In this document: piece after piece, positions 12,895 through 63,606 of the stretch | How positions within the stretch are numbered: the stretch's first letter is position 1 | How the letters are laid out: each line of letters begins with the position of its first letter | Virus record (IMG/VR): IMGVR_UViG_3300047564_001181 | Coordinates: 31,187 to 95,186 of that record | DNA: 64,000 nucleotides | Strand: one strand, 5' to 3' | Source of the DNA: a virus | Notes under the pieces: generated by a model | The model's database searches: none | Told to the model about the DNA's origin: nothing | The model's input: only the letters and a program-made list of their open reading frames with translations | Position numbers and translations under genes: made by a program

Positions 12895-13575
12895 TTAAAG
12901 AAATTTTTTAAGGTCAAATGGGGAATTGTCCCATTTCTTCATATTTTGAATTTGCTTCCATTTCTTAGTCGACCAAGAAAATCCTGCATCTCCACCCCAT
13001 AAATCCCATGCAACACGACCAGGACTTGGGAAGCCATTTTCTCCAGAGTTAAATCCTTCTGCTTGTTTGTCAACTTCATGACGAGAAAAGAATGAATACA
13101 TTCTTGCAACTGTTGAAGGTGAAAGATTTGTTCCATTTACAATTTGATTAGCACGAGCCAAACCAACTCTAGTTCCTCCACGCTTACCTTCAGACTTCCA
13201 CTGCAAAGCTCTACGGGCTGCAGATTTCATTCCATCTGTTGGTCTTAAATCAATGTCTGCTTTATAAACATTGTCAATCATGTCGTCATCCATATCATCT
13301 TCGTTATCCATAGAGTGACCTTCAAGTGTGTCTAGTCTTTCTGCATCATTATGCATCATACCAATGCTATATGGTGTTGGTAGCCACTGACCGTTTTCCT
13401 CTTCATAGATTCTTACAGACATTGCTGGGTTATCTGGTGGCATAGACTCTAATGCGTACTGGTCTCCTGGAGTTCCAAGAGTTCCACCCTCAATCATAAT
13501 ATGCTCTACACGACCATGAACAATACCAGCAGCAGTTCTGCCCATAACATAGTCGCCTTCTTTAATGTGTGCCAT
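12895..13575 (-). CDS. two-domain phage protein (HVA1-like N-domain + conserved helical domain)
   Basis: N-domain aligns by eye with the insert in the prohead protease; C-domain 'RMYSFFSRHEVDK...GRVAWDLWGGDAG.SW' is recurrent in phage head-associated proteins. Confidence 0.65.
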   Translation of the reverse strand: MAHIKEGDYVMGRTAAGIVHGRVEHIMIEGGTLGTPGDQYALESMPPDNPAMSVRIYEEENGQWLPTPYSIGMMHNDAERLDTLEGHSMDNEDDMDDDMIDNVYKADIDLRPTDGMKSAARRALQWKSEGKRGGTRVGLARANQIVNGTNLSPSTVARMYSFFSRHEVDKQAEGFNSGENGFPSPGRVAWDLWGGDAGFSWSTKKWKQIQNMKKWDNSPFDLKKFL

Positions 13576-21764: not shown

Positions 21765-22092
21765 GGAGATATGGTCTTTCTCTATTCTTGTTTATCTTTT
21801 CTACAAAGACTTCCTCAAGAGAAGATGTAGTTACTCCATTTGCATCGAGTCCAGCCCATAGGTCAAGAACACGGACAAGAATGTCTGCTAGTTCTTCAAC
21901 TACTTCTCTTTCTCCCTTGTCCTTGCGAAGTGCTTCTAATACCTCTGTGGCTTCTGAGTGAATCATTGCAATTTGCTTTGCATAAAATACAAAGGCATCC
22001 TGCTCTTGAATTCTTTTAGTTGGTTCCCAAAAACCTTTATCTTGTGCTGTTCTGTGTAAATCTTTTGCGAGTAAGTCAAAACTTACATTCAT
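21748..22092 (-). CDS. MazG-like nucleotide pyrophosphohydrolase
   Basis: 'HSEATEVLEA.RK......EELAD...R..D' and 'KN.ER...HG'. Confidence 0.88.
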   Translation of the reverse strand: MNVSFDLLAKDLHRTAQDKGFWEPTKRIQEQDAFVFYAKQIAMIHSEATEVLEALRKDKGEREVVEELADILVRVLDLWAGLDANGVTTSSLEEVFVEKINKNRERPYLHGVKG

Positions 22093-25000
22093 CGTACAAA
22101 CTCCTTAATTGTTAGTGTTCCAGTTCTAGTTTCTTGCAATACTGGCTTACAGCGAGTTCCTGGCTTGGCATTTACCAAAGCATTTGAATACATACCAGAG
22201 AACACAGTAGTTGCAAATAATTCTTTATCATTATTAGCGAAGATGATATTTCCCATCTTATCGCCTTTCTTTGTTTTTCTACCAGAGAATGATACCACAT
22301 ACATTTCATCATCGATTAAATTAAGATTCTTCGCTGCAAGGAACTTGGTAAACGGAGTATCCGCTTTCTTAATTTCATCTGTGGTTGCATACTCTGCAAT
22401 TCTATTATCTCCTACTAGAATAAGATACTGCTTACCTGTTTCAATTTCAGTATCTTGCTTATCAAAGACACCGACAGCACCAGTCTTATCTACTAGCTCA
22501 ACACGAGACCATCCATCTCCACGCTTAATTGACTTAACCATAGCCATAACTAAGAATGAACCTATTTCTTCATATTCTTCTAATGGCTTAATAAAGGCTT
22601 CCATCCATCTAGGCAAATCATTAACAAACTCTGGAATGTTTAACATCTCATAGTAGTTCTCCGACTCTTTTCCTGTTCGCTGATTATCATCAAACGCTGC
22701 ACCACCAATCTTATTTAGTGATTCAACTGCACGAGCATTGATGCCAGAACCCTTCTCACGAGTTACCTTACGGAAGTGTTCATATGAAATATATGGTCTA
22801 CGCTTAATAATTGCATTAGCAATGTTTTCAGAAATATACTTAACATTTCCAAGACCAAATCTAATAGCATCACCTTCAAGAGTGAAGTCAATTCCGCCTT
22901 CATTAATGTGTGGCAAGCGAATCTTGATACCCATACGCTTTGCTTCGATTAGATATTCTGTACGAGTATCTTTATCTTTTTCGTTGCGTAAAAGAGAGTA
23001 CATAAACTCTACAGGATAGTAACGCTTGAGCCAAGCGGTCCAGTAAGAAAGCATAGAGTAAGCAACTGCATGTGACTTATTAAATGAATAACCTGCGTGT
23101 GCTTCGAAGTCGTGCCAGAGCTTTTGAGCATCGTGAGCATCGATATGCTTACTTGCACCCTTGATGAACTCATCCTTGTACTTATCAAATTCACGAGCAT
23201 CTTTTTTCTTACCAATAATCTTACGAACTTTATCTGCTTCTGCCATTGTCATTCCACCTAGCTTTACGCAAGCGAGCATAACTTGTTCTTGATACAGAAT
23301 ACATCCATAAGTATCTTTAGTAAACTCTTCAACAATTGGGTGAACATAGTTAACCTTTTGCTTACCCTTTTTACGCTTAATATAATCAGCACCAATGGTA
23401 TTCATAGCACCAGGTCGAACAAGGGCGTTAGAGGCTGCCAATTCGTTAAAGTTGCTTACCCCCATCTTTATCAGCAGGTTAGTGTACGGCACTGTTTCCG
23501 CTTGGAATACACCCTTTGTGTGTCCAGCCGTTAGGTCTAGATACACCTCTGGGTCGGCTAAATCCAATTCTGAGAGGTCAATCTCCTTGTTGTGGCGTAA
23601 TTTAATGCTGTCCAGAGTGTCGTGGATTACAGCAAGGGTTTTAAGCCCTAGAGCATCAATCTTAATGAGACCAATCTCTGCAGCCTTTTCCATATCTACA
23701 GCCACTACAGGAATACGGTCATCCCCTTGGGTATCCTTACGAGTCTCCATTGGGGCAAACTTGTAAATGTCATCCTTAGCAGTTACGATACCTGCGGCAT
23801 GCATACCAGTGCCACGAATACGACCACGAAGGCGGTCTGCATAGAAAACAATCTCTGGATACTTCTGCCTAAATTCTGCCGTATTTTTACTTGTAATAAA
23901 GTCTTCCCAAGTCTCAACTTGCTTGAGTGCTTTGTTTACTTCTGATAATGGAACATGGAACGCACGAGCAACATCTCGAACAACACCTTTGTCCTTGAAT
24001 GTAAGAAATGTAGCAATTGAGGCAACATGTCCATACTTGCTAGTTAAATATTCTTTAACCTCACTTCTTCGGCGGTCTTCATAGTCTGTATCAATATCGG
24101 GAAAGTCGTTACGCTCAGGGTTAATGAATCGGAAGAATAGTAATCCATATTTAATTGGGTCTACTTCTGTAATTCCCAACGCATAACAAACCAAAGAGCC
24201 AGCAGCAGAACCACGACCAGGACCAACAAGAATTTGATTACTCTTAGACCAGTTAATCATGTCTGCAACAACAAGGAAGTATGAACTAAAGTTTTTGTCT
24301 TTAATAATTTCTAACTCATCATACAGACGCTTTTTGTATTCTTCATTTACTGCCAGACCTTTTCTTACAAGCCCAGAGTATGCGAGTTTTTCCAGCTCTG
24401 CATGTGGGTCGCTATATTGGGCTGGTAGAAGGTCTAGGTCTTTCTTTTCTGTGTACGAGCCAATCTTGTCACTAATTGCAACAGAGTTTTCGTATAGGTC
24501 TGGTCTATCAATTCCCTGCTCCTCCATTTTGGATTTAACATCATTGATACCAGAAAGATAAATATCTAGTTCTGAGAACGACATCTGACGGTCTCCATAT
24601 AGGTAGTCGAGCCTCTGCATAACATCTTTAATCTTGGTGCTTCCATCGTAAGTTGCTTCCTTACGAATGTTTGGGTGTGTACCCAAGATAAGCATGATTT
24701 CTTCTGCTACTCTATCCTTTGGGTCTGCGTAGTGGCAGTCAAGAGTTACTGTGCTCTTTACACCCATCTCATCTGCTAACTTAAGCAATGAGTGATTAAG
24801 CTCGGCAGGATTGTGTGGCTGAAGTTCCATATAGAAGTCATCGCCAAAAACTTGTTTAAACCAATCGGTATACGATTTAGCAGCAGACATATTGCCATTC
24901 TCAATAGCCTTTGCAATAATACCGTTCATACATCCAGATAGCACAACAAGACCACTTGAGTGCTTTTCTAGGATATCAAAGTCCATACGAGGCTTCATGA

Positions 25001-25349
25001 AGAATCCATCGTTCCAAGCACTTTCCGACAACTTGCCAAGGTTTTCTAGCCCCTTATCGTCTTTTGCAAGAACAATTAAGTGGTTATAAATTTGGTCTTC
25101 TGCTTGTCGGTCTTTCTTTGCTCGCTTATCAAATCTATCATTTGTAAAGTATGCCTCAATACCGAGGATTGGCTTTACTCCTGTTTCTTTTGCTGCAGCA
25201 AGCATATCCATATGACCAGATAGAGTTCCGTGGTCGGTAATAGACAACGCAGTCATATCTAGCTCTTTTGCTCGTTGCATTAACTCTAGTGGCGATGAAA
25301 AGCCATCTAGTAAACTGTAATAAGAATGTGAATGGTGGTTATGAAACAT
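22089..25349 (-). CDS. dnaE: DNA polymerase III alpha subunit
   Basis: PHP domain 'H.HS.YSLLDG' and 'TDHG'; 'GPGRGSAAGSL'; 'PDIDTD'; 'Y.FNKSHA.AY'. Confidence 0.97.
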   Translation of the reverse strand: MFHNHHSHSYYSLLDGFSSPLELMQRAKELDMTALSITDHGTLSGHMDMLAAAKETGVKPILGIEAYFTNDRFDKRAKKDRQAEDQIYNHLIVLAKDDKGLENLGKLSESAWNDGFFMKPRMDFDILEKHSSGLVVLSGCMNGIIAKAIENGNMSAAKSYTDWFKQVFGDDFYMELQPHNPAELNHSLLKLADEMGVKSTVTLDCHYADPKDRVAEEIMLILGTHPNIRKEATYDGSTKIKDVMQRLDYLYGDRQMSFSELDIYLSGINDVKSKMEEQGIDRPDLYENSVAISDKIGSYTEKKDLDLLPAQYSDPHAELEKLAYSGLVRKGLAVNEEYKKRLYDELEIIKDKNFSSYFLVVADMINWSKSNQILVGPGRGSAAGSLVCYALGITEVDPIKYGLLFFRFINPERNDFPDIDTDYEDRRRSEVKEYLTSKYGHVASIATFLTFKDKGVVRDVARAFHVPLSEVNKALKQVETWEDFITSKNTAEFRQKYPEIVFYADRLRGRIRGTGMHAAGIVTAKDDIYKFAPMETRKDTQGDDRIPVVAVDMEKAAEIGLIKIDALGLKTLAVIHDTLDSIKLRHNKEIDLSELDLADPEVYLDLTAGHTKGVFQAETVPYTNLLIKMGVSNFNELAASNALVRPGAMNTIGADYIKRKKGKQKVNYVHPIVEEFTKDTYGCILYQEQVMLACVKLGGMTMAEADKVRKIIGKKKDAREFDKYKDEFIKGASKHIDAHDAQKLWHDFEAHAGYSFNKSHAVAYSMLSYWTAWLKRYYPVEFMYSLLRNEKDKDTRTEYLIEAKRMGIKIRLPHINEGGIDFTLEGDAIRFGLGNVKYISENIANAIIKRRPYISYEHFRKVTREKGSGINARAVESLNKIGGAAFDDNQRTGKESENYYEMLNIPEFVNDLPRWMEAFIKPLEEYEEIGSFLVMAMVKSIKRGDGWSRVELVDKTGAVGVFDKQDTEIETGKQYLILVGDNRIAEYATTDEIKKADTPFTKFLAAKNLNLIDDEMYVVSFSGRKTKKGDKMGNIIFANNDKELFATTVFSGMYSNALVNAKPGTRCKPVLQETRTGTLTIKEFVR

Positions 25350-27332: not shown

Positions 27333-28556
27333 CTAGAAATTAGGGTCTGAAATCTCTTGAAATTGACCTTTATCAAAGTCTGCAAACATTACGAAGTCAC
27401 CTAAAAACCCATGGCGATTCTTACGAAATGCACACTCTAGAGCATCCGTATTTTGCTTACGACCAAGTGCTAATACCCAGTCAGCATCGTACGCAATCTG
27501 ACGAGACCATGCTACCTGTCCCAATTGTGGAACAGATTCTAAGTCTGTGGCATCATCTGGCGTAGCAGATGCAATTGCAATAACTGGAATTTGCTCTGCA
27601 ATAGCCAATAACTTTAGCTCACGAGATAGGTTCTTAATCTTTACTGTCTCATTTGCATTTGTATTAGAGTTGTCAGTCATCAACTGTAGGTAGTCAATAA
27701 TAACTAGGTCTGGTTTATATTGGTCAATCTTGGCTCTAATAACGCTTGGCGTTACTGCTCCTTCTCCATCACCAGAGATAATTTTGAATGGTGCTTTACC
27801 AACAACATTGTCTTCAGCCCATTCTTTAAAATCATTCTCATCTACTTTTCCAGAAGACATAACTCTATGACTAAACTTTCCATCGCCAATAACTGTAAAG
27901 ATACGATTACGAACTTCATTCTCAGTCATTTCAAGCGATAGAATCATTGGCACACGACCTGCTTTCCAAGCCTGTACTGCAAAATACAATGCAAGCCAAG
28001 ATTTACCAATAGCAGGGTATGCAAGAAGGATACCTAGTTGTCCTTTGGAGATTCCCATTGGGAGGCAGACATCGAATGATGGGATATTGGTCCTGATTCC
28101 AATGTCCCCATTTTTAGCAGCCTCACGAGTCTTTTCAAAGTACGCCAGAGCATCATCAATGTCTGTAACTTCAACATCTCTCACCTTTGCTGTAATTCTA
28201 GACAGGTTAGATACAGAGCCATTTACAAAATCAAGTGCTTTGCTTGTTTCTCCATTTTGCAGTAGCTCTGCAGACTGTCTAAGTGTTTTTCTAAGAGATT
28301 CATCCAGAAAGGCTTCTTTTAGTTTATTTACATGATAAACGGTAGGACCAACCTCTACTGAATCAAAATCTCTAAATCTAGTTTCAAGTAGTTCAGCGTT
28401 TGGGATTTGTTTTGTATCATTGTAGTATTCTTTAATAAAGTCCCAAATGTCACCACAAGTAGTCATCATTGGGTCTACACCATTCTCAAATAGAATGTGG
28501 ATATCTTTATTTTTACATACGGCAGAGATTACCTCTACTTCTTCCTTCATACTCAT
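27333..28556 (-). CDS. dnaB: DnaB-like replicative helicase
   Basis: 'AYPAIGKS', 'SLEM', 'IIDYLQLM', 'SRELKLLA', 'DAD', 'KNRHG'. Confidence 0.93.
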   Translation of the reverse strand: MSMKEEVEVISAVCKNKDIHILFENGVDPMMTTCGDIWDFIKEYYNDTKQIPNAELLETRFRDFDSVEVGPTVYHVNKLKEAFLDESLRKTLRQSAELLQNGETSKALDFVNGSVSNLSRITAKVRDVEVTDIDDALAYFEKTREAAKNGDIGIRTNIPSFDVCLPMGISKGQLGILLAYPAIGKSWLALYFAVQAWKAGRVPMILSLEMTENEVRNRIFTVIGDGKFSHRVMSSGKVDENDFKEWAEDNVVGKAPFKIISGDGEGAVTPSVIRAKIDQYKPDLVIIDYLQLMTDNSNTNANETVKIKNLSRELKLLAIAEQIPVIAIASATPDDATDLESVPQLGQVAWSRQIAYDADWVLALGRKQNTDALECAFRKNRHGFLGDFVMFADFDKGQFQEISDPNF

Positions 28557-41580: not shown

Positions 41581-44500
41581 TTAACTCCTAAACCTATTTT
41601 CCATAGAGCGTTGTACTCTTCTAAATTCTTTAACAACAAGATTTGCTGCTTGTTGTGGGTCATTGGAAGTAACAGAGATATTAACAGGCATATTAAGATT
41701 GTTGTTCTTAACCTTTGTTGTAGAAGTCATTACAGATGTTACTCTAGCACTATTTGACTCAGGCATGCTGTATTCTGGAACCTTTCCGCCCATTTGCATA
41801 CCAATTCTTCCGCCAACCATTCCTCCCATATTATACCCTACTCTTCCTCCAGAGTTCATTGCCTGAAGTGTTGAAAGGTTTGCAGCGGTTGCTTTTTTAT
41901 TTACAACAAACTCTCCTGGGGTAAGCATGGCTGGAACAGTATCTGTATTTCCAACCCCTGGAACAATTGAGCCTTTATTAAATCTCATCACCATTCCACC
42001 TTTATTGAGGAACTGCATAGAGCTTAAGGGAATTCCATTCCAACTATCTCCAGTAATTCCACTTGCAACCATCTTGCCATTGCTATTGTAAATACTATAA
42101 GTAGATGAGGTTGGATTAAACTGTTTCTTAAACTTAGAAGTTTGTTGACCTGTAACCTGACCATTTTGTGCTTGATACTGCTTAACGCTTCCAATGCCAC
42201 TTACTGTAATAGTGGTTGTACCAAATCCTGGAGGAAGTATACCTTGAGCATTTGAGCCAGCACCAGAGGTTGCTGTAAATCCACCAATAACAGCAGCGTA
42301 TAGTTTTTGAGCTGCAGCTTGGTCTAGTCCGTATGCGTCAGCAAGTGCTGTTGCTGCATTTTTAATTGCTGTGTCAAACCCTTCTACCAGTCCTTTTGAT
42401 GAAGCATTAACAGACTCTTTAACCTTTGGAGGTACAATTTCTGCAACCTCAATTGCTGCGTCTTCAAGTTTTTGAAGGTCGGTAGCAGTTACTTCTCCAA
42501 CCTCCATATCAATGATTTCTTGAGATTTATCAATTAGACCCTGTAGCCCACGCAAAGACTTATTACGACCAATATTAATCTTTTCAATCTTTTTATCAAT
42601 GTTGTCCATCTGTGCGTCAGCGGCTTCACCTGCGGCATTTGCAGCTTTTTGATTTGCCTTAAGTTGAGCATCAATGCCCTTGATTGCGTTATCTCTAGTA
42701 TCTTCAATTTGGTTAATAGCTTCTTCTCTACCAAACTGTTGAGCATCTGAAGCTTGTTGAATTTGAGATTGAACAAATCCAAAAAGGTCTCCCTTAGCAA
42801 GAGATGAAAGTCCGTCTATAGATGTTTGTCTTTGGTTGTTATAAAATTCTTCTGCCTTGTATTCTTTTTCAAGAAGTTTAATGTACTCGTCTGTATTGTC
42901 ATTAATAAGGTCTGCTCTATCTTGAAGAGCCTCAGCTTCTGCATCCAGTTGTTTCATTCTGGATTCGTGTGCATCTGCTAAAGCACCCTTTTCTTTTTCA
43001 AGAGCAGCAATTCTTCCATTTGCAATGTCATTTACTTTTTCCATTGCATCTTCTTGTGTCTTAATATAATCTCTTAATTGATTATCTAAGTCAATTTTTG
43101 CCTGACGAGATGCCTCATTAAAGTTAACTTTTGCTTCAAGCTCAATAGGTGGTAGATTTAAATCTTTAGGGTCGATTCCAGCTGCGAGTGCTCTCATAAA
43201 TAGTTGAGCAGATTCTCTACCAGATTCTGTTGCTAGGTTTAGATTTGCAAATGCATCGGCAGCAGCTGACTCTGGACCATATCCCATATTTCCAAGAGAT
43301 TGCTCAATGCCCATTCTAAGTGATTGTGGGTCAAGATTCTGACTATTAATTAGTTGTGCTGTTTGAACTCCAAACTCAATTGGATTATCAGCAGATTGTC
43401 TTAGTAAGTTTTCGTATGCACCAACGAAGGCAGTTGCTTTCTCTTCAGCAGTTCCAAGATTTTTAATTGTTGCCTGAACAGATGTAACAAGAACTCCCAT
43501 AGCATCTTCTGCGTTTTTAATTCCTTTTAATGTAGTATTCCATGCTGAGTTAAATGCTTCAGTTGCCATAGATTGTCTAGCAATTTCTGCAGTAATTTCT
43601 TTTGCTTGTGTTGTATCAAAACCTTGTGTTAGGAGCGATGTGTATACTTCAGTTAAAGTATTTGCCTTTTCCTGTTCAGTTCCCAGACCCTTAATTCTTT
43701 CAATTGCATCACCATAATCTTGTGTAACTGCAGCGGCATAATCTTTTTCAATCTGACCACGACCAACAATTGCAGCAGCCATACCCATAGAACGAGTTTG
43801 CTTTTCATTTTCTTTAAGGGCAGCACCTGTCTTTTTAAGTTCGATGTTGTATACCTTAGCCATTTCAGTGGCTTCTCCGTACACATCTCTAATCTGATTT
43901 ACCCACTGCTCAACCTTCATGTCACGGATAAAGTTTCCAATTTCATAGATAGTTGCTAGTGTTCCTACAACTGGAATTGCTTTAAGACCAACTCTTGCAA
44001 TTCCCTTTAAGATTCCTCCACCAAGCATTTTTTGTGCGAGTGCTCCACCAGCTCCACCGCCACCCTTTAGCATAGCTTGTTTTTGCATTTGTCTTTGTAT
44101 TGCATCCTGACCCATGCCTTTTGCCATCATTGCTTTTTGAGCTTTTTGAGCTGCAGAAATACCTCTTCCAGCTTTCAAACCGCCCATTAAGTTTAGACCA
44201 CCAGCACCAACACCTTGCTTAAGCCCAACTAAATTTAATCCCAACATTAATGCTGACATTGGGTCTAGACCAGTTGTCATTATGCCTTCAATAATTGATG
44301 GTAATGTAGCTGCTGATATAGCTCCAAAACCAATCATCATGGCTTTACTTCCAGTAAGTCCTGCAAAAAGTTTTGCTAATCCTCCAACTGCAAATTTTCC
44401 ATATCCCTGTGTATTTCCCATTCCACCATTAATTTGTGCAAGTAGTCCAAGATTATTCTTTGTAGCATCTTTATTGATAACAAATTCGCCTGGTTCTAGT

Positions 44501-47500
44501 AAGGCTGGAACCTTGTCTCCACCTCCAAATCCAGGAAGTTTTCCGCCATTAGCATATTTAAGAACTGGTCCACCCATATTAAATTTTTGTGCTCCAATAA
44601 GTTCACCCTCAAGTACGCTAAATCCATTAGGGTCTGTAGACTTTCCAGTCACTCTAATTCTTGAGTTTGTCAGCAAGTGCTCTGCTTCTGACATTACACC
44701 CATGCCTTCAATAAATCTCTTATCTCCAGCAATATCTGTGAGAGGCAAGGTCATTGTTCCTCTAGGAGTTTTAATGCTAATAATTAAAGGTTCTCTATTT
44801 TGAAGGAATCTAGATTTTGCTCTTTCCGCTTGATTTCTTTCAATACTATAATCCATAGAGCCTCTAGCATTTCTAATTTTTCTATCAAATTCGTCTAGGG
44901 CTTCCTTACGCTTTTTAACTTCATATGGGAATGGTTCTAATTGTTTGCCAAATAAAGTTCCTTCTTGAGATGGGAATAGTGCATCTTCTAGTTCTTGTCT
45001 TTGTCTCTGTAAGTCTGCTAATTGTCTTCTTGAACTTAGATACTGTCTAGCATGGAAAACCCGATTGCTTCGCATAATTAATTGCTCTTCGGCTGGTGTT
45101 GTTGCAACCCTAGTTCCCCAGTTTGCCGCACCGACATCTCCCATACCAAGTTCTTCCATTAAACCTTTTTGTCCGTATGTATATCGTCTTTCAGCACCTA
45201 TTCTATGCATGCTAGCAAAAGTTGTTGCTGTACCCTGACTTGCAGAGAAAGAAGATGTGCCAGGAACTTCAAAAATATCTCCAGGCTTTAATGCCTGTAA
45301 TTCTGCGGAGTCAATCGATGTTCCTCTAAATAGCTGGGTGTCGTGCATAGTCCCTGTTTGTTTCTTTCTAAGAGCATCTATATAGAGTTCTATATCACTT
45401 TTTGGAACTGTCTGTGTAGATAACTTGCCAATAGGGACTGAATCTGCATCTAACTTAATTTTCTTCATCCAGTCATTAATATTAAATCCTTTTTGCAAAA
45501 GTTCTGTTGCTTCTGGAAGGGCTTTTTGTTCTGACCTAGAAAGAATTTGCATAAGCCCACCAACTAAACCGCCGTTTTTCATTCCAGGAATTTTAGCTCT
45601 AATAATTGACCTTATTATTGGCAAAACTTTTTCGCTAAGTGAGAATAAATATTGTTTTTGACTACCTCTAGCAGCTGCATATTCTGCCCTAACAACTGTA
45701 TCTACACCCTTTTGAAGCGTACTTTGACCTACATATCTAATTTCATCTAATTGACCTAAGTCTCTAAGACCAACCCTACCTAAATTTCTCTTTCTTTCTT
45801 CAGTAAGCCAATCATCATATGATAGATTTGGATTTCTTCCCTGTGCCGCTGCAAACTTAGCTTGTCTTTCTTGTAATTTTTGAACTGCTACCGATGAACC
45901 ATATTTTTGTCTTAATTCATTTTCGCTATAAAATATATCTTCCAGTGCCTGAAGACCTTTGCCGTATATAAGTTTTCTTCCAGTTAGAGGCTCAACAATT
46001 TTAGCAATTAATGACTTTTGTTTTTGACCTAGTGGTCCTCTTTCAAGGACGCTGCCTATCTGAGTTGCACCTTTTCTAATATCTTCTGCCGCAGCTGAAA
46101 TTTCAGCCTGGTGTGCAGCACTAATTAGCTGACCATTTAAAAGGCTTTTAGGGTTGGTTCCGCTAACTCTTCCATCAATAATATCTTTTGTTTGTTCAAA
46201 AGTTACTAATGCTCCAGATAGTTGCCCAATATTTTTTCTATTATTTGTTAATGCGTTTAATAAATTATCATCTGTTCTAGAAAGCAAACTTTCAGAGATG
46301 TCTTGAAAAAGGGATTGTAGTTCTTTATTTACAACCAATGGTCTGGTGTCACGAATAATTCGTCTTATTGAATTTGCATCATATGATTTCCCTGTACTCC
46401 TATTTAATTCATCTGCAATAGTTCTAAATGTATCGTCTGATGATGCACCTAAGCTTTCAACTAGCTGATTTAGTCCACCACCTTCAGCAGATGTGATTAA
46501 TGCGTAGTCATTTAAGAAAGCCATTCCTGGAAGGTGTGCATCGGCTGTAAATCCTGAAGCTGTAAGTTGCCTTTGATATCCAGCCTGTGTTGGAGTTGGT
46601 GATGATGGAAGCTGTGCTGAAAAATCTAAAGCATTTTTACCAGCCATAAAGTGTGCTCTGTGAACACCAACTCCATGTCTTACTTCACCATCTGATAATC
46701 CTAATTTGTATCTATCACTTACTGATTGTGTTTTTGCACTATCTGGATAAACATGGCTAAGGGCTGTAATTTCATCTTGATTAAGAAGACCTCTTCTTGA
46801 TAAATCTGCAAATACCTGTTCATATGATTTTGGAGCAGAGCTAACTTTTGCCTTTAGACCTTTCTTTGCGTATTCTTCTTGGAACACTCTTCTTTCTTCT
46901 TCGGTTCCAGTTAATCTTTCTGTTAAGCCATTTGAATATTGACCATATGTTCCATCATTAATAGAGCGAAGAATTGGAGCAAATCTTCTAGATGATTCTT
47001 TATTAATAACAAACTCTCCCTTTTCAAGAAGGGCTGGAACCTTGTCTCCTCCACCATAACCATTAATTTTTCCTCCAGTATCTACTCCGTTTTCGGCATA
47101 GATTACTCCGCCGTCTTTTCTTCTAATAGGTCTTGGACCTCTAGAAGAAGGCATAACTGCTCCTGGTGGAGCAACTGTAGCGGCATTTCTTAAGTTTGCA
47201 ATATAGGTTGAAAGTGATTTATTTAGAAGGTCAACAGATGTCTTTTGTCTATTGTACGCACCTGTTAATTGGTCTGCAGCTATTTTTGCTGCTAATTCTT
47301 CGTCAGTAAGAATTTGTAATTGTTGTACTGGACTTCCAGTAATTCTCTTAAAGAGATTGATAATACTCATGCCGAACTTCATTGCGTTACCAATCAAGTT
47401 ACCAAAAATACCAGCAAGCATAAGAATTGGACCAGATACTGCTGCTACTCCAGCTAGAATCTTAGCAAAGTTTTTAATTGGTGTAGGTAAGTTATTAAAT

Positions 47501-49086
47501 CCATCTACAACCTTTTGTAGAATGTCAAGAGCCTTCTGCATAATTGGTAGCAATGTTTCAGCTAGGTCAGCACCGACACGAATTAATTGTTCTTGTAATT
47601 GTTGTTGTGCTGCTGCAAGTCTTGTTGATGGTGCTCGCTCTTGAGCTTTTAATTCCGAATAAGCTTTCTTTGCAAGTTCATCTGCAGATGCATTCATAAG
47701 TTTTACCATGCCAATTGTCTGAGAGCCTTGCTGATTTAAGTTATCGAATAATGCAGAAATACGAGCAAACTGATACTTACCAAAGATTTGTTCAATAATT
47801 TTTGCTTTACCAAAATCATCTAGTCCTCGTAACTGGTCTTGGAAATCTAGAAGCATAGGCATAAGCTGACCTCTGTTTCGGTCAACTACTCCCTGTAGGT
47901 CAATGCCGAACTGTCTTGCCACCTCAATTGCTTGTTTTGTTGGAGATATAAGAGATGCCATACCAGACTTGATTGCGTTAGCACCTTCACCTGCTGCAAT
48001 ACCACCCTCACGCATTGCCGTCATAAGAATTGAAAGGTCTTTAATGTCACCACCTAGTGCCTGAATAACAGGACCAGTTTTAGGAATTGCTTCTACTAAA
48101 TCTTGTAGCGATGCAGATGTTTGGTTTTCAACTGCGTTTAAAAAGTCGATTGACTGAGCAAGTTCTCTTGAGCTTTGATTGAATGCTGTCTGAATAGATA
48201 GAGTTGCTTTCATAGCCTCTTGTCTATCAACTTCACCGAGAACCATCATACGAGTTGTTTGTGTGACGGCTGATGCAAGTTTTTGACCTTCTAGACCAGT
48301 TGCTGCTAAGTCTGCAGCAAGTGCCATAGTTTCTGAAGATGCAATACCATATTGCTTTGCAAACTCTGAGCCAAGAGTTCTAATTTGACCAATCATTTCA
48401 TCTGTGGCATTACCAACAGTTCCAGTTAGGTCAGAGCCGTATACTTTACGGAATCTTGTAATCTGTCTATCTACTTCAGAGAATGCTTTTAATGCCTGTG
48501 TAGAGAAAATAGCCATTGGAACGGTAAGACCAACAGTTAGCTGACGACCAGCCCATTGAGTATTTTTACCCCAGTTTACAAGTTCTGTTGCTCCACGATT
48601 TACAAGGTGGTTAAAAACCTCATATTGTTTATTTAATACTGCAATATTATTTGCAGCATTTCTCATATCTAATGCGTCTGGAGTAAGAAGAATACCTTTT
48701 CTTCTTCCTCCAACATCACCCATGCCAACTACGGCAGACTGTGCTCTTCTAACTTCTCTTTCAGCCAAGATTCTAGCTTTTGAATCTTTTCTATATGCTA
48801 CTGCTGCTTCTCTAAAGTACTCACGCATTGTGAGTTTGTTTTTCATTAACTGCTGACCGAAGCCTTCGGTTGCACCCGTTAGGTCAACAATTTGTGCTTT
48901 AAAACCAGCAAAGCCAGCTTGGGACGCAAATGTTGAGGCTGCGTCCATCTTAATGCTGGCTGCTGTTTTATTTAATTGTGCAAATGCTGAGTTTGCAGCA
49001 GTTGCTTCACGAACAAGGTTTTTAATGTCCTTTGTTACTTTGCTAAAATCACTGTCGTACCTAAATGTGGACCTGATATCAGCCAT
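41581..49086 (-). CDS. tape measure protein (TP901-type core) with internal effector-like insert
   Basis: Follows the tail chaperones; TMP core at about aa 170-600 ('LTVP', 'GEGANAIKS'), hydrophobic segments, coiled coils; ART-like insert at about aa 1175-1495. Confidence 0.92.
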   Translation of the reverse strand: MADIRSTFRYDSDFSKVTKDIKNLVREATAANSAFAQLNKTAASIKMDAASTFASQAGFAGFKAQIVDLTGATEGFGQQLMKNKLTMREYFREAAVAYRKDSKARILAEREVRRAQSAVVGMGDVGGRRKGILLTPDALDMRNAANNIAVLNKQYEVFNHLVNRGATELVNWGKNTQWAGRQLTVGLTVPMAIFSTQALKAFSEVDRQITRFRKVYGSDLTGTVGNATDEMIGQIRTLGSEFAKQYGIASSETMALAADLAATGLEGQKLASAVTQTTRMMVLGEVDRQEAMKATLSIQTAFNQSSRELAQSIDFLNAVENQTSASLQDLVEAIPKTGPVIQALGGDIKDLSILMTAMREGGIAAGEGANAIKSGMASLISPTKQAIEVARQFGIDLQGVVDRNRGQLMPMLLDFQDQLRGLDDFGKAKIIEQIFGKYQFARISALFDNLNQQGSQTIGMVKLMNASADELAKKAYSELKAQERAPSTRLAAAQQQLQEQLIRVGADLAETLLPIMQKALDILQKVVDGFNNLPTPIKNFAKILAGVAAVSGPILMLAGIFGNLIGNAMKFGMSIINLFKRITGSPVQQLQILTDEELAAKIAADQLTGAYNRQKTSVDLLNKSLSTYIANLRNAATVAPPGAVMPSSRGPRPIRRKDGGVIYAENGVDTGGKINGYGGGDKVPALLEKGEFVINKESSRRFAPILRSINDGTYGQYSNGLTERLTGTEEERRVFQEEYAKKGLKAKVSSAPKSYEQVFADLSRRGLLNQDEITALSHVYPDSAKTQSVSDRYKLGLSDGEVRHGVGVHRAHFMAGKNALDFSAQLPSSPTPTQAGYQRQLTASGFTADAHLPGMAFLNDYALITSAEGGGLNQLVESLGASSDDTFRTIADELNRSTGKSYDANSIRRIIRDTRPLVVNKELQSLFQDISESLLSRTDDNLLNALTNNRKNIGQLSGALVTFEQTKDIIDGRVSGTNPKSLLNGQLISAAHQAEISAAAEDIRKGATQIGSVLERGPLGQKQKSLIAKIVEPLTGRKLIYGKGLQALEDIFYSENELRQKYGSSVAVQKLQERQAKFAAAQGRNPNLSYDDWLTEERKRNLGRVGLRDLGQLDEIRYVGQSTLQKGVDTVVRAEYAAARGSQKQYLFSLSEKVLPIIRSIIRAKIPGMKNGGLVGGLMQILSRSEQKALPEATELLQKGFNINDWMKKIKLDADSVPIGKLSTQTVPKSDIELYIDALRKKQTGTMHDTQLFRGTSIDSAELQALKPGDIFEVPGTSSFSASQGTATTFASMHRIGAERRYTYGQKGLMEELGMGDVGAANWGTRVATTPAEEQLIMRSNRVFHARQYLSSRRQLADLQRQRQELEDALFPSQEGTLFGKQLEPFPYEVKKRKEALDEFDRKIRNARGSMDYSIERNQAERAKSRFLQNREPLIISIKTPRGTMTLPLTDIAGDKRFIEGMGVMSEAEHLLTNSRIRVTGKSTDPNGFSVLEGELIGAQKFNMGGPVLKYANGGKLPGFGGGDKVPALLEPGEFVINKDATKNNLGLLAQINGGMGNTQGYGKFAVGGLAKLFAGLTGSKAMMIGFGAISAATLPSIIEGIMTTGLDPMSALMLGLNLVGLKQGVGAGGLNLMGGLKAGRGISAAQKAQKAMMAKGMGQDAIQRQMQKQAMLKGGGGAGGALAQKMLGGGILKGIARVGLKAIPVVGTLATIYEIGNFIRDMKVEQWVNQIRDVYGEATEMAKVYNIELKKTGAALKENEKQTRSMGMAAAIVGRGQIEKDYAAAVTQDYGDAIERIKGLGTEQEKANTLTEVYTSLLTQGFDTTQAKEITAEIARQSMATEAFNSAWNTTLKGIKNAEDAMGVLVTSVQATIKNLGTAEEKATAFVGAYENLLRQSADNPIEFGVQTAQLINSQNLDPQSLRMGIEQSLGNMGYGPESAAADAFANLNLATESGRESAQLFMRALAAGIDPKDLNLPPIELEAKVNFNEASRQAKIDLDNQLRDYIKTQEDAMEKVNDIANGRIAALEKEKGALADAHESRMKQLDAEAEALQDRADLINDNTDEYIKLLEKEYKAEEFYNNQRQTSIDGLSSLAKGDLFGFVQSQIQQASDAQQFGREEAINQIEDTRDNAIKGIDAQLKANQKAANAAGEAADAQMDNIDKKIEKINIGRNKSLRGLQGLIDKSQEIIDMEVGEVTATDLQKLEDAAIEVAEIVPPKVKESVNASSKGLVEGFDTAIKNAATALADAYGLDQAAAQKLYAAVIGGFTATSGAGSNAQGILPPGFGTTTITVSGIGSVKQYQAQNGQVTGQQTSKFKKQFNPTSSTYSIYNSNGKMVASGITGDSWNGIPLSSMQFLNKGGMVMRFNKGSIVPGVGNTDTVPAMLTPGEFVVNKKATAANLSTLQAMNSGGRVGYNMGGMVGGRIGMQMGGKVPEYSMPESNSARVTSVMTSTTKVKNNNLNMPVNISVTSNDPQQAANLVVKEFRRVQRSMENRFRS

Positions 49087-58464: not shown

Positions 58465-61400
58465 TTAAATTGTTATTGTTGCTTTAGCAACTAGGTCTGT
58501 TTTCTCTTTTACACCTTCAAAGGTATAGGCATCTACCTTTTTTAGATATGGAGACTCTGCCCATACAAGGTGGGTGCTTGTACTAACCCAGTGAGTTCCT
58601 TTATTTGTTACCCCGTCTTTTACATACACAACACTGCCGACAGAAGGATTGGTCTGTCTTGTAAGGGTTAAGGTTGTAATCTTAGACGGATTATTTGCAT
58701 CTCCATATGTAAATCCTACAATGAATATGCCGTTTTGAGAAGAGGTTGATTGATTTTTCAAAAGAACCCTGTCTCCGTCTTGAATATAGGTTCCATCAAT
58801 TAACAGTTGATTTGTCGTGGGGTCAGTTATTGTAAGATTTCCCGTTGTCCCCGTGAATGGCTCATTGATTCTCGAAGCTAGGTCAACATCTACAAGCAAA
58901 GCAGTCTGAGTGGTTGGAACAGACATTGGCTGATATATCTCTGTATTATTTGATATCTCAGAATCATAGAATATGATTTCGTTGGAGCCTGACGGGTCTA
59001 CAGCAAGCTTATACGCACCCTTATATAGATTATTTATCATTGTAACTTCGGTTAAGGTGATATCTCCAACAGCCCCATCTAAGGTTAGAATCTCGTCTAG
59101 ATAGAAGTCTGATTTATTGGTTGCATGTCCAAAAACAATATCTACATTTGTAGATTCTGCAACTATCATTCTAGCATTAAAGGCAACAACGATATGTGTC
59201 CAAACACCAGCAGTAAAGCTATTTGAAGTGCTTCCATTTACCCAAGCAGTTCCTCCTCCAGAAAGCGTTATGGTTGAGCCACTTGATGTCATTGTTCTAG
59301 TATTTGTCCCATCAGTAACAGTAAATAATGTTCTTGTGTCAGAATCTGGGATGTTAACAAAGAAACTTAATCCTAGTAAGCCAGATGTTGAATCGTCTCC
59401 ACTTGTTGTTCCAAGGTCATAGTTAATTTTTGCAGTTCTTCCAACTCTTAATCCACCAACTTCTTCTGTCCAAAAGAATGGTGTTTCTCTATAGTCTGGT
59501 AAGTGTAAATCTTTTTTGGAGTCAGTAAATGTAAGCTCAACATCTGGACCATTACATGTAATTGTAGATGTGTAAACCCCAGAAGATTCTTCTACCTCTA
59601 AAGATGATAATCTAAAGTATGAAACGGTAGTTGGGTTTTCTTCAACATCATTGGAGTTGAATGTCATTGTAATTAGCAACGCTCTTGTCTCTCCAGAGCT
59701 TTTACCCATAATATTTTTGATATGAGTTCTGTTGGTTATAGTCTCAGATGTAAACCATGTGTCATCAGCCTCTTGATATATTTGATTAAATGATGAATAG
59801 TCTGTATCTAATTGGGAGTAAGAAGAGTATTCCGTATCAAGTGCTGAGTAGTCTGCGTATGGCTCTATTACCGTATTTCCAATTGGAGTGGCTGTAACCG
59901 TTAGTTCTGCACTATCGTGTCCCCATTCAACTCTATTTGGTCCAATAATTCCATTTACGCCGTCTAGTCTTTTAGCATCAATTTTAAACTTTATCCAACC
60001 AGTTGATTTAACCACAAATCTTTTTTGTGTTGAGTTAAATTCTGCAGTATATTTATTAATTCTGGTATTTGCATCAGTATATATTCCAGAGCTGGTAGAT
60101 GTTATGTTTGTATCTAGTTGAACTACTTTTTGTAGACCGCCATTAAATCTTTCTATTTCTGAGTCCGTCAGGTCTGCAATGTTTTCTTTTTCGTCAAAAA
60201 TATTGTTAGACATAAATCTTAAGTTTGCGGAATACGCAATTGGGAATAGTCCAGGATTTTCAAATGTTGTTTGTGCTCCAGTTCCACCACTAACCTGTTG
60301 AAATATTGTAATTTCATTAGATGTTGAATTAAAGAAATATCCAACCGAAAAGCTTCCATTGATTCCACCAGAAATTGTAGAGCCAATTTTTGTTCCACCA
60401 TCATTATTGATTTGATAGTAGATTCCTTCACCGCTTGCTTCTTTAAGAATGTATATTTTTAAGAAGTATTCATCATTTATTGGGTCTTGTAAAACCATTA
60501 AGGTTTTAACATCTCCAGTTGTTGGCGAAGTTTGTGCCGTTGTCTTGTGGAATACCCCAGCAAAACCACTTCCATTTGGTGTAGAATCTGAAGAACTTGT
60601 TTTTACATAACTTCCATACCTTTGTGGATTAATCTCAACAAGCCCACCGACATCCATTCTTAGTCCTTGTGTTCCGTCCCATGAGAATACGCTAGATGTT
60701 TTATCTTCTGTGTATTTCATTGATGGCTGTTCAAAGTTATTAATTCTTAGGTGGTCTTTTTCAATAACTAAATTGTTTGACTCTGTGTTGTTCATCCAAG
60801 AAGAACCATTGTATTTTTGAATAACTCCAGCAAACTTTGATTGTGCTAGAGAAAGATTATATCTGTATCCACCAAAATTGCCAGCTAGTGATTCTGGAAC
60901 TTCATATCCTAGTCCGTATACCATGTGTCTTCTTGCCGTAAGAGTAGTCATTGCATATGCATAAATAGCAATATCGTCTAAAGCATAATCTAATCCAAAG
61001 TGGAAAAATCTAAATACATCACTTGCTAACACATAAGATGTAGACAAAATGTTATTTTTAAATTGAACTGTTTTTCCTATCCCGTTTACAATCAGGGATA
61101 CTGAGTCTTCTTTATAGACAAATGCAACATGAAATGGCTTAGACATATTTTCAACTGGAACTACTACTTTTGTTACATTCCCAGCGGTATCTCCAACAAT
61201 GCCAATAAAGGAAGAGTTATGAACATATACGCCAGTCTGGGAACTATCCTTTCCTACAATCTTTTGCATTGTAGATGTTGATAAAGTCGTTTTAGGTTTT
61301 ATCCAAAACTCTAGAGTCATTGGGTCTGCTTTATATCTGGTTGTAGCAAATCCCATTGCTGGAATCTGTACTGCACCCAATGTAGCCGTAGCATTATTTT

Positions 61401-61650
61401 GAGTAATATAAATTGACCTTGACTGGGTTTCAGCAGATGTTCTTCTTCTATAGCTGGTTGAACTATTTATGATTGGAAAGCTTTTTGCTGTGCAGGTTGC
61501 CCTATATGTTCCATTTGTAGATGTGCTTGAGTTTGGAAACTCTAATAGGTATCCGTCCTGATAAATTGTATTCCCAGAAGAAATGCCAGAATCATCAAGC
61601 TTCCAAGTGATTAAAGGCAAATCTTTTTGAATATTAAAGGAATAGGACAT
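58465..61650 (-). CDS. large LamG/concanavalin-like virion protein
   Basis: 'W.LDD', 'TLEFWIK', 'HVAFVY....SLIVNG', 'DDIAIY'; second 'WTHIVV' domain; C-terminal 'GDRVLLKNQ....NGI' fibre motif. Confidence 0.7.
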   Translation of the reverse strand: MSYSFNIQKDLPLITWKLDDSGISSGNTIYQDGYLLEFPNSSTSTNGTYRATCTAKSFPIINSSTSYRRRTSAETQSRSIYITQNNATATLGAVQIPAMGFATTRYKADPMTLEFWIKPKTTLSTSTMQKIVGKDSSQTGVYVHNSSFIGIVGDTAGNVTKVVVPVENMSKPFHVAFVYKEDSVSLIVNGIGKTVQFKNNILSTSYVLASDVFRFFHFGLDYALDDIAIYAYAMTTLTARRHMVYGLGYEVPESLAGNFGGYRYNLSLAQSKFAGVIQKYNGSSWMNNTESNNLVIEKDHLRINNFEQPSMKYTEDKTSSVFSWDGTQGLRMDVGGLVEINPQRYGSYVKTSSSDSTPNGSGFAGVFHKTTAQTSPTTGDVKTLMVLQDPINDEYFLKIYILKEASGEGIYYQINNDGGTKIGSTISGGINGSFSVGYFFNSTSNEITIFQQVSGGTGAQTTFENPGLFPIAYSANLRFMSNNIFDEKENIADLTDSEIERFNGGLQKVVQLDTNITSTSSGIYTDANTRINKYTAEFNSTQKRFVVKSTGWIKFKIDAKRLDGVNGIIGPNRVEWGHDSAELTVTATPIGNTVIEPYADYSALDTEYSSYSQLDTDYSSFNQIYQEADDTWFTSETITNRTHIKNIMGKSSGETRALLITMTFNSNDVEENPTTVSYFRLSSLEVEESSGVYTSTITCNGPDVELTFTDSKKDLHLPDYRETPFFWTEEVGGLRVGRTAKINYDLGTTSGDDSTSGLLGLSFFVNIPDSDTRTLFTVTDGTNTRTMTSSGSTITLSGGGTAWVNGSTSNSFTAGVWTHIVVAFNARMIVAESTNVDIVFGHATNKSDFYLDEILTLDGAVGDITLTEVTMINNLYKGAYKLAVDPSGSNEIIFYDSEISNNTEIYQPMSVPTTQTALLVDVDLASRINEPFTGTTGNLTITDPTTNQLLIDGTYIQDGDRVLLKNQSTSSQNGIFIVGFTYGDANNPSKITTLTLTRQTNPSVGSVVYVKDGVTNKGTHWVSTSTHLVWAESPYLKKVDAYTFEGVKEKTDLVAKATITI

Positions 61651-61668
61651 ATTACCTATTATACCTCA

Positions 61669-63606
61669 TTATACAGATGTAATCTCGCAAGAGCCAGCAA
61701 CGCAAGCAAGTTCTTGAGAGCCAGTTGTCATGTCTTCTGTCTCATAAAGTTTTAGCCAATCCCAATCAAGATTCTGTGGAGTAGTTGAAAGTAGTGCTTC
61801 GTACTCTTCTTTTGTAATCTCAGTATATGGGGCTTGCTGATATGTATGCTCTGAATATGGCAAGAACGATACCCCAGACATTTCATCGATATGCTTATAT
61901 ACCCAAGCACCAACTTCCATCCACTCATGTTCTTTTACAGAAACAGTAATGGAAGGCTTATGCTCTGTCCAGTGTCTTTGATATGTTAACCAAAGTTCTA
62001 GATGCTGAATAGCCGATAGATTCTCACGAAGCAGAGCACCTTCTGGAGCAGCAATTGGGAATGTGAATACCATTGTTGCCGATGGGTTCATAACATCTCT
62101 TTCGGACTTAACTCCCATGTCGTTTAGCAACGCTGTAACAGGGTCTTTGATATCTCCACGAATTGTTCTAGCGTAATATTGTGAGTGCCACGGATGCATA
62201 CCAGAAGATGCATTTGTCAACTGAGATACAGTTCCAGATGGCTTAACGCAAGTGATGGCTGCTGCAGGATTAATTCCAAGTTTTTCAGCCCACTCTGCAT
62301 TTACCTTAACTGAGTGTTCTCTAAGTTCATCTAGCCATTGTGCCAATTTATCGAATCCTTCAGAACCATTAAGAACCTTGTGTGAGAGTTGACCAGTCAG
62401 AGAAACGCCAAGCAATCTTTCTTCTTCACAATTCTTTTGCCATTGCTTACGAAGATACTTAAATCTAGTAAATGTAGACTGAACAGTTCCAAGAATTGTA
62501 GCCAGTTCAGTTTTACGCAATAGGTCTTCCAGCGTGTCAGTATCACGGACAATAACTTCTGTTAGGTTACAGAATTCATACGGACGAAGAATAATCTCTG
62601 AACATGGGTTGGTTCCAAAATCGGATATTTCACGGCGACCATTTTTAGATGCAATCTTTTGTGCGGCTTCACGAGAGAAGATACCACGCTCTCCAGACTT
62701 TGAATCATATAGGGATTTCCATTCAGCCATGAATACTTCCATGGTTGGCTTTTGATTGTACACGGCAGAGTTATTTGCTAGTGCTCTCTGTCCGTTGTAT
62801 TCCCACCAAGCACCAGCTTTTGCTGCTGCCATATTTCTGTCTTCTAGGTCTGACAAAGAAATCATTGCAGAGCGGCGAACGCCACCAACGACAACAACTT
62901 CTGCAATTTTACACATAAGGTCATGTGCTTCTAATGGAGTAATCTTTCTACCAGCCGCACCCTTGATTGTATCAACTGAAAACTTAAATAGTTTTACCAA
63001 AGGTTCTGGTCCACTTGCACGACCACCAAAAGTCTTTAGACGAGCACCAGATGGGCGAACGCCAGAAACATCCCATGTAGGGATTTGACCCTGCCATAGA
63101 AGTGCCAGAAGCTCTCTAAGAGCCTTTGCCCATCCAGCCTTCGAGTCTTCTACGACAATTGTGGTATTTGTTTTTTCAAAGTGCTCATTGACTGCTGGAA
63201 GTTGATTAACATATCTTGTTTCAACAGAGTATCCGACTCCCGTACCACACATCAAAATATACATGGCTTCGTCAAATGAACGAAGTGAGTCTACAGGAAG
63301 ATATGAGCAATTATAAAGACAGGTGTTGTCTCTTTCTAGTGCTGGACCAGCGGTCATTAGACCACGCATCGATGGCATAACTTTTGTATCCAAAATTGCC
63401 TCTCGGATATCTTTAACTACCTCCGAACTGAATTCATATTCGTTATATCGCTTTACAGCATCAAAAATATAATCGACATATCGGTCTACCGTTTCGTCCC
63501 AATTTTCACGGCGACCTTGTTCTTCAATCCATCTTGCATAGCGTGTCTTGTGGATAACTTCCTGATACGCAGTAGGTAGCTTTTTAGCCATATTTTTCAT
63601 CTCCAT
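61669..63606 (-). CDS. nrdJ: class II (adenosylcobalamin-dependent) ribonucleotide reductase
   Basis: 'NCS', 'GGVRRSA', 'TNPCSEI', 'KPSGTVS', C-terminal 'C..GSC'; no beta-subunit gene adjacent. Confidence 0.92.
   Translation of the reverse strand: MEMKNMAKKLPTAYQEVIHKTRYARWIEEQGRRENWDETVDRYVDYIFDAVKRYNEYEFSSEVVKDIREAILDTKVMPSMRGLMTAGPALERDNTCLYNCSYLPVDSLRSFDEAMYILMCGTGVGYSVETRYVNQLPAVNEHFEKTNTTIVVEDSKAGWAKALRELLALLWQGQIPTWDVSGVRPSGARLKTFGGRASGPEPLVKLFKFSVDTIKGAAGRKITPLEAHDLMCKIAEVVVVGGVRRSAMISLSDLEDRNMAAAKAGAWWEYNGQRALANNSAVYNQKPTMEVFMAEWKSLYDSKSGERGIFSREAAQKIASKNGRREISDFGTNPCSEIILRPYEFCNLTEVIVRDTDTLEDLLRKTELATILGTVQSTFTRFKYLRKQWQKNCEEERLLGVSLTGQLSHKVLNGSEGFDKLAQWLDELREHSVKVNAEWAEKLGINPAAAITCVKPSGTVSQLTNASSGMHPWHSQYYARTIRGDIKDPVTALLNDMGVKSERDVMNPSATMVFTFPIAAPEGALLRENLSAIQHLELWLTYQRHWTEHKPSITVSVKEHEWMEVGAWVYKHIDEMSGVSFLPYSEHTYQQAPYTEITKEEYEALLSTTPQNLDWDWLKLYETEDMTTGSQELACVAGSCEITSV

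Follow-up and report, generated by a model that had tools for sequence, protein, structure and literature searches.

A divergent R-S-E-type ADP-ribosyltransferase fold inside a phage tape measure protein: a candidate enzyme carried by the tail

The stretch of viral DNA analysed here (the window: 64,000 nucleotides, positions 31,187 to 95,186 of IMG/VR record IMGVR_UViG_3300047564_001181) is part of a 95,186-bp virus record with an estimated completeness of 87% and contains a gene for a giant tape measure protein (TMP) that appears to hold an ADP-ribosyltransferase (ART) domain in its interior. The TMP gene (P0001) occupies window positions 41581..49086 on the minus strand, as do all features of the protein described below, in a stop-free frame of 2,501 codons. 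Homology and synteny agree in marking it as a genuine TMP within a siphovirus-type late module: its product matches PF10145 (PhageMin_Tail) at E 1.6e-24, PHROG 10030 at E 1.5e-102 and eight more TMP PHROGs at E < 1e-20, and the gene order runs from portal, protease, major capsid, adaptor, a major-tail-like gene and a small gene to the TMP, and on to a 248-aa gene (distal tail) and a 1,373-aa minor tail protein. By the same homology and synteny the TMP is predicted to be a virion protein. MuF-type Pfam families are not among its matches, leaving the TMP itself as the carrier, and Pfam and NCBIfam reveal no second recognisable effector domain in it. The cassette of interest, aa 1170-1505 (44572..45579), comprises N-terminal helices, a split ART core and an insertion, as delimited by a structural model and fold searches; together, fold and motifs strongly support its assignment, at aa ~1170-1505, as a highly divergent member of the R-S-E class of ARTs.

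The motifs of this class occur in the cassette in the expected order. An earlier, sequence-only reading of this DNA had picked out the corresponding strings, and all of them are found in the translation at the residues assigned to them, with LIISIKTPRG one residue later than simple counting would place it. The arginine, R1254 (codon 45325..45327), lies in TQLFRGT, whose LFRG falls in strand β1 according to the model (strand 81-90), profile pairings and relatives. The equivalent of the S-T-S motif, S1279-F1280-S1281 (45244..45252), closes strand β2 with a helix next, as placed by profile pairings and relatives; together with S1278 it sits in PGTSSFS within LKPGDIFEVPGTSSFSASQGTATTFA. LIISIKTPRG (aa 1434-1443; 44758..44787) corresponds to model strand 262-271, the strand after the insertion, and relatives keep the pattern hhhhxhxTPxG at this position. 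E1467-A-E1469 (44680..44688), part of the SEAEHLL that falls within SEAEHLLTNSRIRVTG, would mark the end of an ADP-ribosylating turn-turn (ARTT)-type loop and the start of the next strand, a placement drawn from the model and from the E-x-E of relatives. A composite pattern of the four motifs occurs once in the TMP and in 0/5,000 shuffles; having been written after the motifs were seen, it is illustrative only.

The fold itself was approached by structure prediction. AlphaFold2 (AF2), given a 14-sequence alignment, models aa 1170-1505 with a predicted local distance difference test score (pLDDT) of 81.5 and a predicted template modelling score of 0.66; the prediction from the single sequence was poor (pLDDT 42) and unusable. 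R1254, residue 85 of the model, falls inside strand 81-90; S1279 and S1281 (model residues 110 and 112) close strand 102-112, which is followed by helix 115-123; and E1469 (model residue 300) is the first residue of strand 300-315. As modelled, this placement of the Arg, S-x-S and E-x-E motifs in the secondary structure is the canonical R-S-E layout. A comparison of the domain with known ART folds, which the sequence-only reading had proposed as a check, was run with Foldseek against the PDB and finds the ART fold, with the Vis toxin at the top (E 3.7e-6, probability 1.00, template modelling score of 0.50 on the target), followed by C3bot1, CDTa, iota Ia, Certhrax, C3larvin and an ART-ARH effector; among the matches listed (~50), all are R-S-E-type ART toxins or effectors. 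VIA-align, a search independent of Foldseek, was run over 48,161 PDB representatives and ranks R-S-E ARTs at all positions from 1 to 12 (Z 9.5-11.4, 106-172 aligned residues), Vis again leading (Z 11.4 over 172 aligned residues) and 8za7, Certhrax, C3bot2, HopU1, VIP2, CPILE-a, C3stau2, 6drh, C2-I, SpvB and XopAI following. The ART alignments cover model residues ~5 to ~330, taking in the core before and after the insertion, and the non-ART rows only model residues ~160-260, which form a helical hairpin. In BFVD, which collects predicted structures of viral proteins, the model is matched best by Gordonia phage ARTs, VIP2-like toxins, MuF/minor-capsid fusions and Alt-type ribosylases. The AF2 model, Foldseek, VIA-align and BFVD, joined to the PF10145 and PHROG matches of the carrier, thus bear out the earlier proposal that an ART fold of the R-S-E (VIP2/C3/Alt) type lies inside a real TMP.

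The insertion sets the model apart from its structural relatives. It spans 138 aa (aa 1293-1430; 44797..45210) between the post-S-x-S helix and strand β3, as delimited from the model and from relatives. Between S1281 and L1434 lie 152 residues, and C3 or iota-type ARTs have roughly 11-25 residues in the corresponding gap, a short loop after S-T-S; the large, partly coiled-coil insertion of ~140 aa that had been noticed in the sequence after S-x-S is therefore upheld. It opens with a small irregular part and continues into two long antiparallel helices, which form its hairpin core (aa 1331-1428; 44803-45096; model helices 162-199 and 218-259), a block predicted at pLDDT 83-96. VIA-align matches model residues 160-260 to the coiled-coil hairpins of LipC, CT398, IpaB and HlyD, which are membrane-fusion or secretion proteins; this arrangement is a common one, and the likeness says nothing about function. 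Every full-length relative has the insertion, which is ~20 aa shorter in the fragment P0009, and it is therefore a family trait rather than a quirk of this phage. Judging from the model, the hairpin is most likely an arm that binds a target or partner, or else an element that packs against the TMP coiled coil; the evidence does not discriminate between these roles.

Relatives of the domain are few and share its setting. A phmmer search over 1.84 billion cluster representatives returned 11 proteins at E <= 1e-3, all of them giant TMPs or contig-end fragments thereof. With P0002, P0014 and the locus L004 added, the ART family stands at 15 known sequences; P0014 was the sole gain from further protein-index searches, IMG/VR scans with the ART domain found only the two relatives already known, and a JGI metagenome scan with it found none. 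Over aligned residues the relatives are 24-72% identical to the domain of the window, and the catalytic residues, intact here, are conserved among them, with the motifs holding up in relatives of as little as 28% identity. The arginine in its aromatic-R-G setting is kept in 12/15 relatives. S-x-S/T is present in all 15 (SFS, SWS, SYS, SVS, SFT or STT), its middle residue being aromatic or Val, not Thr, in most, and E-x-E is present in each of the 11 that cover the site (EAE, EFE, EME, EKE, ERE or EQE).

Sequence profiles connect the family to characterised ARTs across the same motifs. Searched against the PDB, the relatives' profile retrieves Vis (E 0.035) as the sole family besides coiled coils, pairing LFRG with AYRG and S-F-S with S-T-S; a four-sequence, domain-only profile retrieved no ART from the PDB. 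Local hhalign comparison of a domain-only family profile with the T4 ModA and ModB sequences (from NC_000866) gave P 4e-4 and 6e-4, respectively, with R1254 paired with R72/R73 (LWRG/LYRG) and S-F-S with SAS/SFT. In the comparison with T4 Alt only E-x-E was paired (probability 0.2), and its pairing with the Alt E-M-E is weak (P 0.07-0.25). The Alt-type kinship suggested from the sequence alone thus holds as regards membership of the R-S-E ART class, whereas the tie to Alt itself is weak, the profile pairing better with ModA/ModB and the structure with Vis, C3 and Certhrax. Searches with single sequences contribute little: the sole hint is PHROG 832 ("RNA polymerase ADP-ribosylase") at E 0.06-0.08, and Pfam, NCBIfam and PDB searches of the single domain yield only coiled-coil noise from the insertion (occludin, PARP_reg, DUF2458). 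Phage ADPrib_exo_Tox clusters come out on top in the ESM Atlas (score 0.82), a lead only, and the ART domain has no tblastn match among 50,697 phage records.

Comparison with related TMPs shows the ART to be a self-contained, conserved block set in a variable slot, and most of those TMPs lack it. The slot is bracketed by a ~65-residue repeat with the core G-x-G-x-x-D-x-V-P-A-x-L-x-P-G-E-F-V-x-N-K, located in three copies by pattern and by hidden Markov model (HMM). Copy 1 (aa 654-721; 46924..47127) contains GGGDKVPALLEKGEFVINK, copy 2 (aa 1496-1564; 44395..44601) comes directly after the ART core and copy 3 (aa 2354-2422; 41821..42027) lies near the C-terminus. No Pfam family exists for this repeat. 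It occurs 1-3 times in many related TMPs, with the first two copies 250-1,900 aa apart, and might serve to delimit modules or as a site of processing or docking. Opposite the C-terminal half of the ART and repeat copy 2, the plus strand has an antisense open reading frame (44282-44803; 173 codons); it has no family match and is probably a chance frame.

Upstream of the ART, aa 722-1142 (45661..46923) form a hypervariable segment, recognised from the identity profile against the two closest TMPs, P0002 and P0003. Identity to these is ~90% over aa 1-600, 8-32% over aa 700-1150, 54-90% over aa 1151-1550 and ~80% beyond aa 1700, and the flanks of the hypervariable segment are 54-100% identical. 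The segment has no match in Pfam, NCBIfam or the Atlas (the last searched with aa 720-1169) and could be a second cargo module of an unfamiliar kind. Eighty IMG/VR loci with a related TMP N-terminal part were examined, of >598 that exist, and the ART is found in two of them, L003 (= P0002) and L004; the slots of nine related TMPs hold no credible Pfam domain. Between the ART and repeat copy 2, extra sequence is present in P0005, P0007, P0008, P0010 and L004.

Natural variants point to constraint on the cassette and to recombination at its border. Two freshwater studies supplied one contig each that spans 43800-47400 without a difference; these identical contigs may be the source of the record. 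In another sample, X5, the ART stretch is present at ~96% nucleotide identity, and the contig leaves the window sequence exactly at 45578/45579, the first codon of the cassette as defined in this analysis, which suggests a recombination joint at the cassette edge. Neither the X5 nor the X6 runs cover 45615-46945 at a likeness of at least 90%. Synonymous changes make up 22/27 of the listed differences in X5 and 8/11 in X6, the rest being conservative and none falling in the triad, although the variant contigs are of low depth and eight differences lie outside the listed ones; this pattern indicates purifying selection acting on the ART coding sequence.

The genome setting speaks to the host. 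WhiB proteins are an actinobacterial family, and the phage genome, with a GC content of 35-43%, carries two genes for them, one at window positions 2496-2684 (minus strand) and one at 13212-13370 of the record, outside the window. The ART stretch (44572-45579) is present in freshwater metagenome runs, with no RNA run among the sequencing runs listed as carrying it, and of the control genomes only Corynebacterium matched. Because of the two WhiB genes, the freshwater occurrence and the single control match, the host is probably a freshwater actinobacterium. A search of the phage genome finds no encoded ARH or macro domain, and no immunity gene adjoins the ART-bearing TMP gene. Elsewhere in the window, the phage has genes of its own for a DNA polymerase III alpha-type replicase (22089-25349) and a DnaB-type helicase (27333-28556), both on the minus strand. 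The portal gene is separated from a class II ribonucleotide reductase-like gene (61669-63606) by a gene of a size unusual for this place (58465-61650, minus strand), whose 1,061-aa product has a Laminin_G_3 (concanavalin-like) domain.

We posit, with moderate confidence, that the domain is an active, arginine-specific mono-ART that is delivered with the TMP and modifies host proteins early in infection. Arginine is the most likely acceptor, since an E-x-E, as opposed to a Q-x-E, is associated with protein ARTs specific for arginine. The ART would be stored with the TMP in the tail lumen, probably not fully folded there; during infection it would be expelled ahead of the DNA, by analogy with T5 pb2, and would refold at or across the cytoplasmic membrane. 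Two hydrophobic stretches of the TMP, aa 539-567 and ~1581-1604, lie on either side of the ART, and a position between them would allow its exposure on one side of the membrane. Once refolded, the domain could bind NAD+ and transfer ADP-ribose, most likely to arginine, modifying one or more host proteins early, for takeover or counter-defence, much as the head-borne T4 Alt does. We tentatively extend this proposal, with less assurance, to the TMP lineage as a whole: it may constitute a modular delivery platform in which a repeat-bounded slot takes exchangeable cargo, here a previously unmodelled R-S-E ART family with a hairpin arm that would be threaded through the tail, refold at the cytoplasmic face and ADP-ribosylate a host protein, a tail-borne counterpart of Alt in phages of freshwater Actinobacteria.

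Several observations weigh against an active, delivered enzyme. On the side of catalysis, the loop preceding E-x-E is modelled at low confidence (pLDDT 55-59), as expected if it is the flexible ARTT-type loop, which it fits. The arginine is absent in three relatives, replaced by Ser in P0010 and by Gly in P0012 and P0013, all with S-x-S/T and E-x-E kept; therefore not every member can be a standard enzyme, and these three may have decayed or may use another residue. PF03496 (ADPrib_exo_Tox) gives no match, even at E 10, to the domain, the whole TMP, 13 relatives, the L004 domain or the six-frame genome, and neither NCBIfam nor single-sequence PDB searches of the domain find an ART; the domain is thus outside PF03496 as that family is now modelled, its fold and motifs placing it in the wider R-S-E class. 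Nor does a profile made from only the C-terminal half find an ART in the PDB. The sequence evidence for an ART spans the N-terminal half and, because the C-terminal half by itself has no significant sequence match to any ART, the E-x-E assignment in that half rests on the model, on position and on conservation. On the side of delivery, a folded core of ~200 residues in three copies should not fit the lumen of the tail tube, which is why storage and refolding are assumed. NAD+ is cytoplasmic, and the arrival of this part of the TMP in the cytoplasm is an assumption. With ~3 TMP copies per virion, the number for T5, the dose would also fall far below the copy number of T4 Alt.

These points bear on what else the domain could be. 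An ART fold could persist in the TMP without enzyme function, serving the protein as a spacer or building element (for example a plug, a length element or a folding unit) whose motifs are kept by descent. Such a role would accommodate the loss of the arginine in P0010, P0012 and P0013 and the fact that no curated ART HMM recognises the domain, and purifying selection would be expected for a purely structural part too; we nevertheless think it unlikely, since E-x-E (11/11), S-x-S/T (15/15) and Arg (12/15) are kept at 24-30% identity, where little else is invariant, and since the module, absent from 78/80 related TMPs, is dispensable for tail building. We hold a similarly low opinion of the idea that the domain is an active user of NAD+ whose substrate is other than the arginine of a host protein, so that NAD+ hydrolysis or modification of a nucleic acid or small molecule would serve counter-defence or metabolic shut-off. 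Fold and triad would be identical in the two cases and nothing in the data points to a target; the large hairpin by the NAD+ site sets the domain apart from protein-targeting relatives, and some R-S-E relatives (pierisin, ScARP) modify guanine. Against this, the E-x-E class rule favours protein arginine, and the nearest structures (Vis, Certhrax, HopU1, VIP2 and SpvB) are mostly protein-arginine ARTs.

A different kind of target is suggested by freshwater phages, some of them assigned to Actinobacteria, that encode VIP2-like ARTs read as anti-grazer "Trojan horses" (PMC6802176). The occurrence of the present phage in freshwater metagenomes and its two WhiB genes match that precedent, and the domain might by analogy be a toxin against eukaryotic grazers, freed when infected cells are eaten. 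It is, however, embedded in a structural protein of 2,501 aa that the virion gives up on infecting the bacterium, no signal sequence, binding component or translocation component is seen, and actin-targeting toxins are no closer to the model than other ARTs (Z all 9.5-11.4); we regard a grazer toxin as very improbable. Chance resemblance to ARTs in a mostly helical, low-complexity protein is scarcely credible. The blank single-sequence searches and the single-sequence AF2 prediction at pLDDT 42 are what chance would produce, but ARTs, and only ARTs, rank above the helical-hairpin background in the fold searches, the motifs are conserved in the family and profile alignments pair the catalytic residues; the AF2 model and the Foldseek and VIA-align results effectively refute this explanation.

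An ART carried in the tail would have consequences beyond this phage. Phage enzymes that are injected and reprogramme the host from the first seconds of infection have been described mainly in T4, whose Alt rides in the head, and otherwise in a handful of fusions to head proteins. If the proposal is correct, an intact ART in a TMP would imply that the tail lumen also carries catalytic effectors that need the cytoplasm, and it would bear on how far TMPs travel into the cell. Routine phage annotation misses such cargo, because at normal thresholds none of Pfam, NCBIfam and PHROGs detects the family. A slot that is variable and bounded by repeats suggests further enzymes concealed in related TMPs, whose own slots likewise lack Pfam matches. 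The conserved hairpin beside the NAD+ site offers a defined feature for probing target choice.

In the literature searched, no published description of an ART inside a TMP was found; the virion-protein ARTs described there are T4 Alt and the MuF-VIP2 fusions. T4 Alt is packaged in the virion, passes into the host together with the DNA and there modifies host proteins, an early modification that aids takeover (PMC5512222). The domain described here resembles Alt, ModA and ModB in being a phage-encoded R-S-E mono-ART, and the S-F-T of ModB is close to its S-F-S. Unlike Alt, which rides in the head as a separate protein, it is an internal segment of a TMP; it also differs from all three in its 138-aa hairpin-bearing insertion, its marginal sequence kinship to them and its lack of a PF03496 match. 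MuF-VIP2 fusions of actinobacteriophages (Microbacterium phages Percival and Goodman), which their authors predict to be virion components (PMC7302621), similarly join a VIP2-type ART to a virion protein; their carrier, however, is the head protein MuF, and their ART is terminal and recognisable by Pfam, whereas here the carrier is the TMP and the ART is internal.

Among bacterial enzymes, Vis (4xzj/4y1w), C3bot, Certhrax, HopU1, VIP2, iota Ia/CDTa, SpvB and the 6drh toxin/immunity pair share the R / S-T-S / E-x-E layout and are the best structural matches over both halves of the core. Identity to Vis, C3 and VIP2-like toxins over aligned residues is 9-19%, and those are secreted or injected bacterial toxins; the present ART resides in a phage structural protein, carries an extra hairpin after the S-x-S helix and comes with neither a binding or translocation component nor an adjacent immunity gene. 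Polyvalent proteins, large and multidomain and predicted to be injected with DNA, have ARTs as their commonest protein-modifying domain (Iyer et al. 2017; PMC5512222). Those ARTs are of the H-Y-D (Tox-ART-HYD2) type and explicitly not R-S-E (PMC5512222), in contrast to the R-S-E triad found here; tape measures are not mentioned for polyvalent proteins (PMC5512222), and no second effector domain is recognisable in the TMP described here.

For the carrier, the closest parallel is T5 pb2, a TMP that sits in the tube as a metastable trimer and is driven out on infection, after which its enzyme part may need refolding (PMC10038345). Both proteins have an enzyme domain near a hydrophobic stretch. 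The pb2C domain is a C-terminal muralytic metallopeptidase that is periplasmic and is cleaved off during assembly, whereas the ART is internal, needs cytoplasmic NAD+ and has no known cleavage site. In the Sle1-type effectors of actinobacterial contractile injection systems, a helical N-terminal region resembling a TMP carries functional domains that vary and can be exchanged (PMC13277306), an arrangement to which the variable slot described here is comparable; these effectors differ in being cargo of intracellular phage-tail-like particles with C-terminal functional domains, among which the available part of that account reports no ART. A virion-borne, injected R-S-E ART is thus known already, and what is new here is the TMP as its carrier, the sequence family and the insertion.

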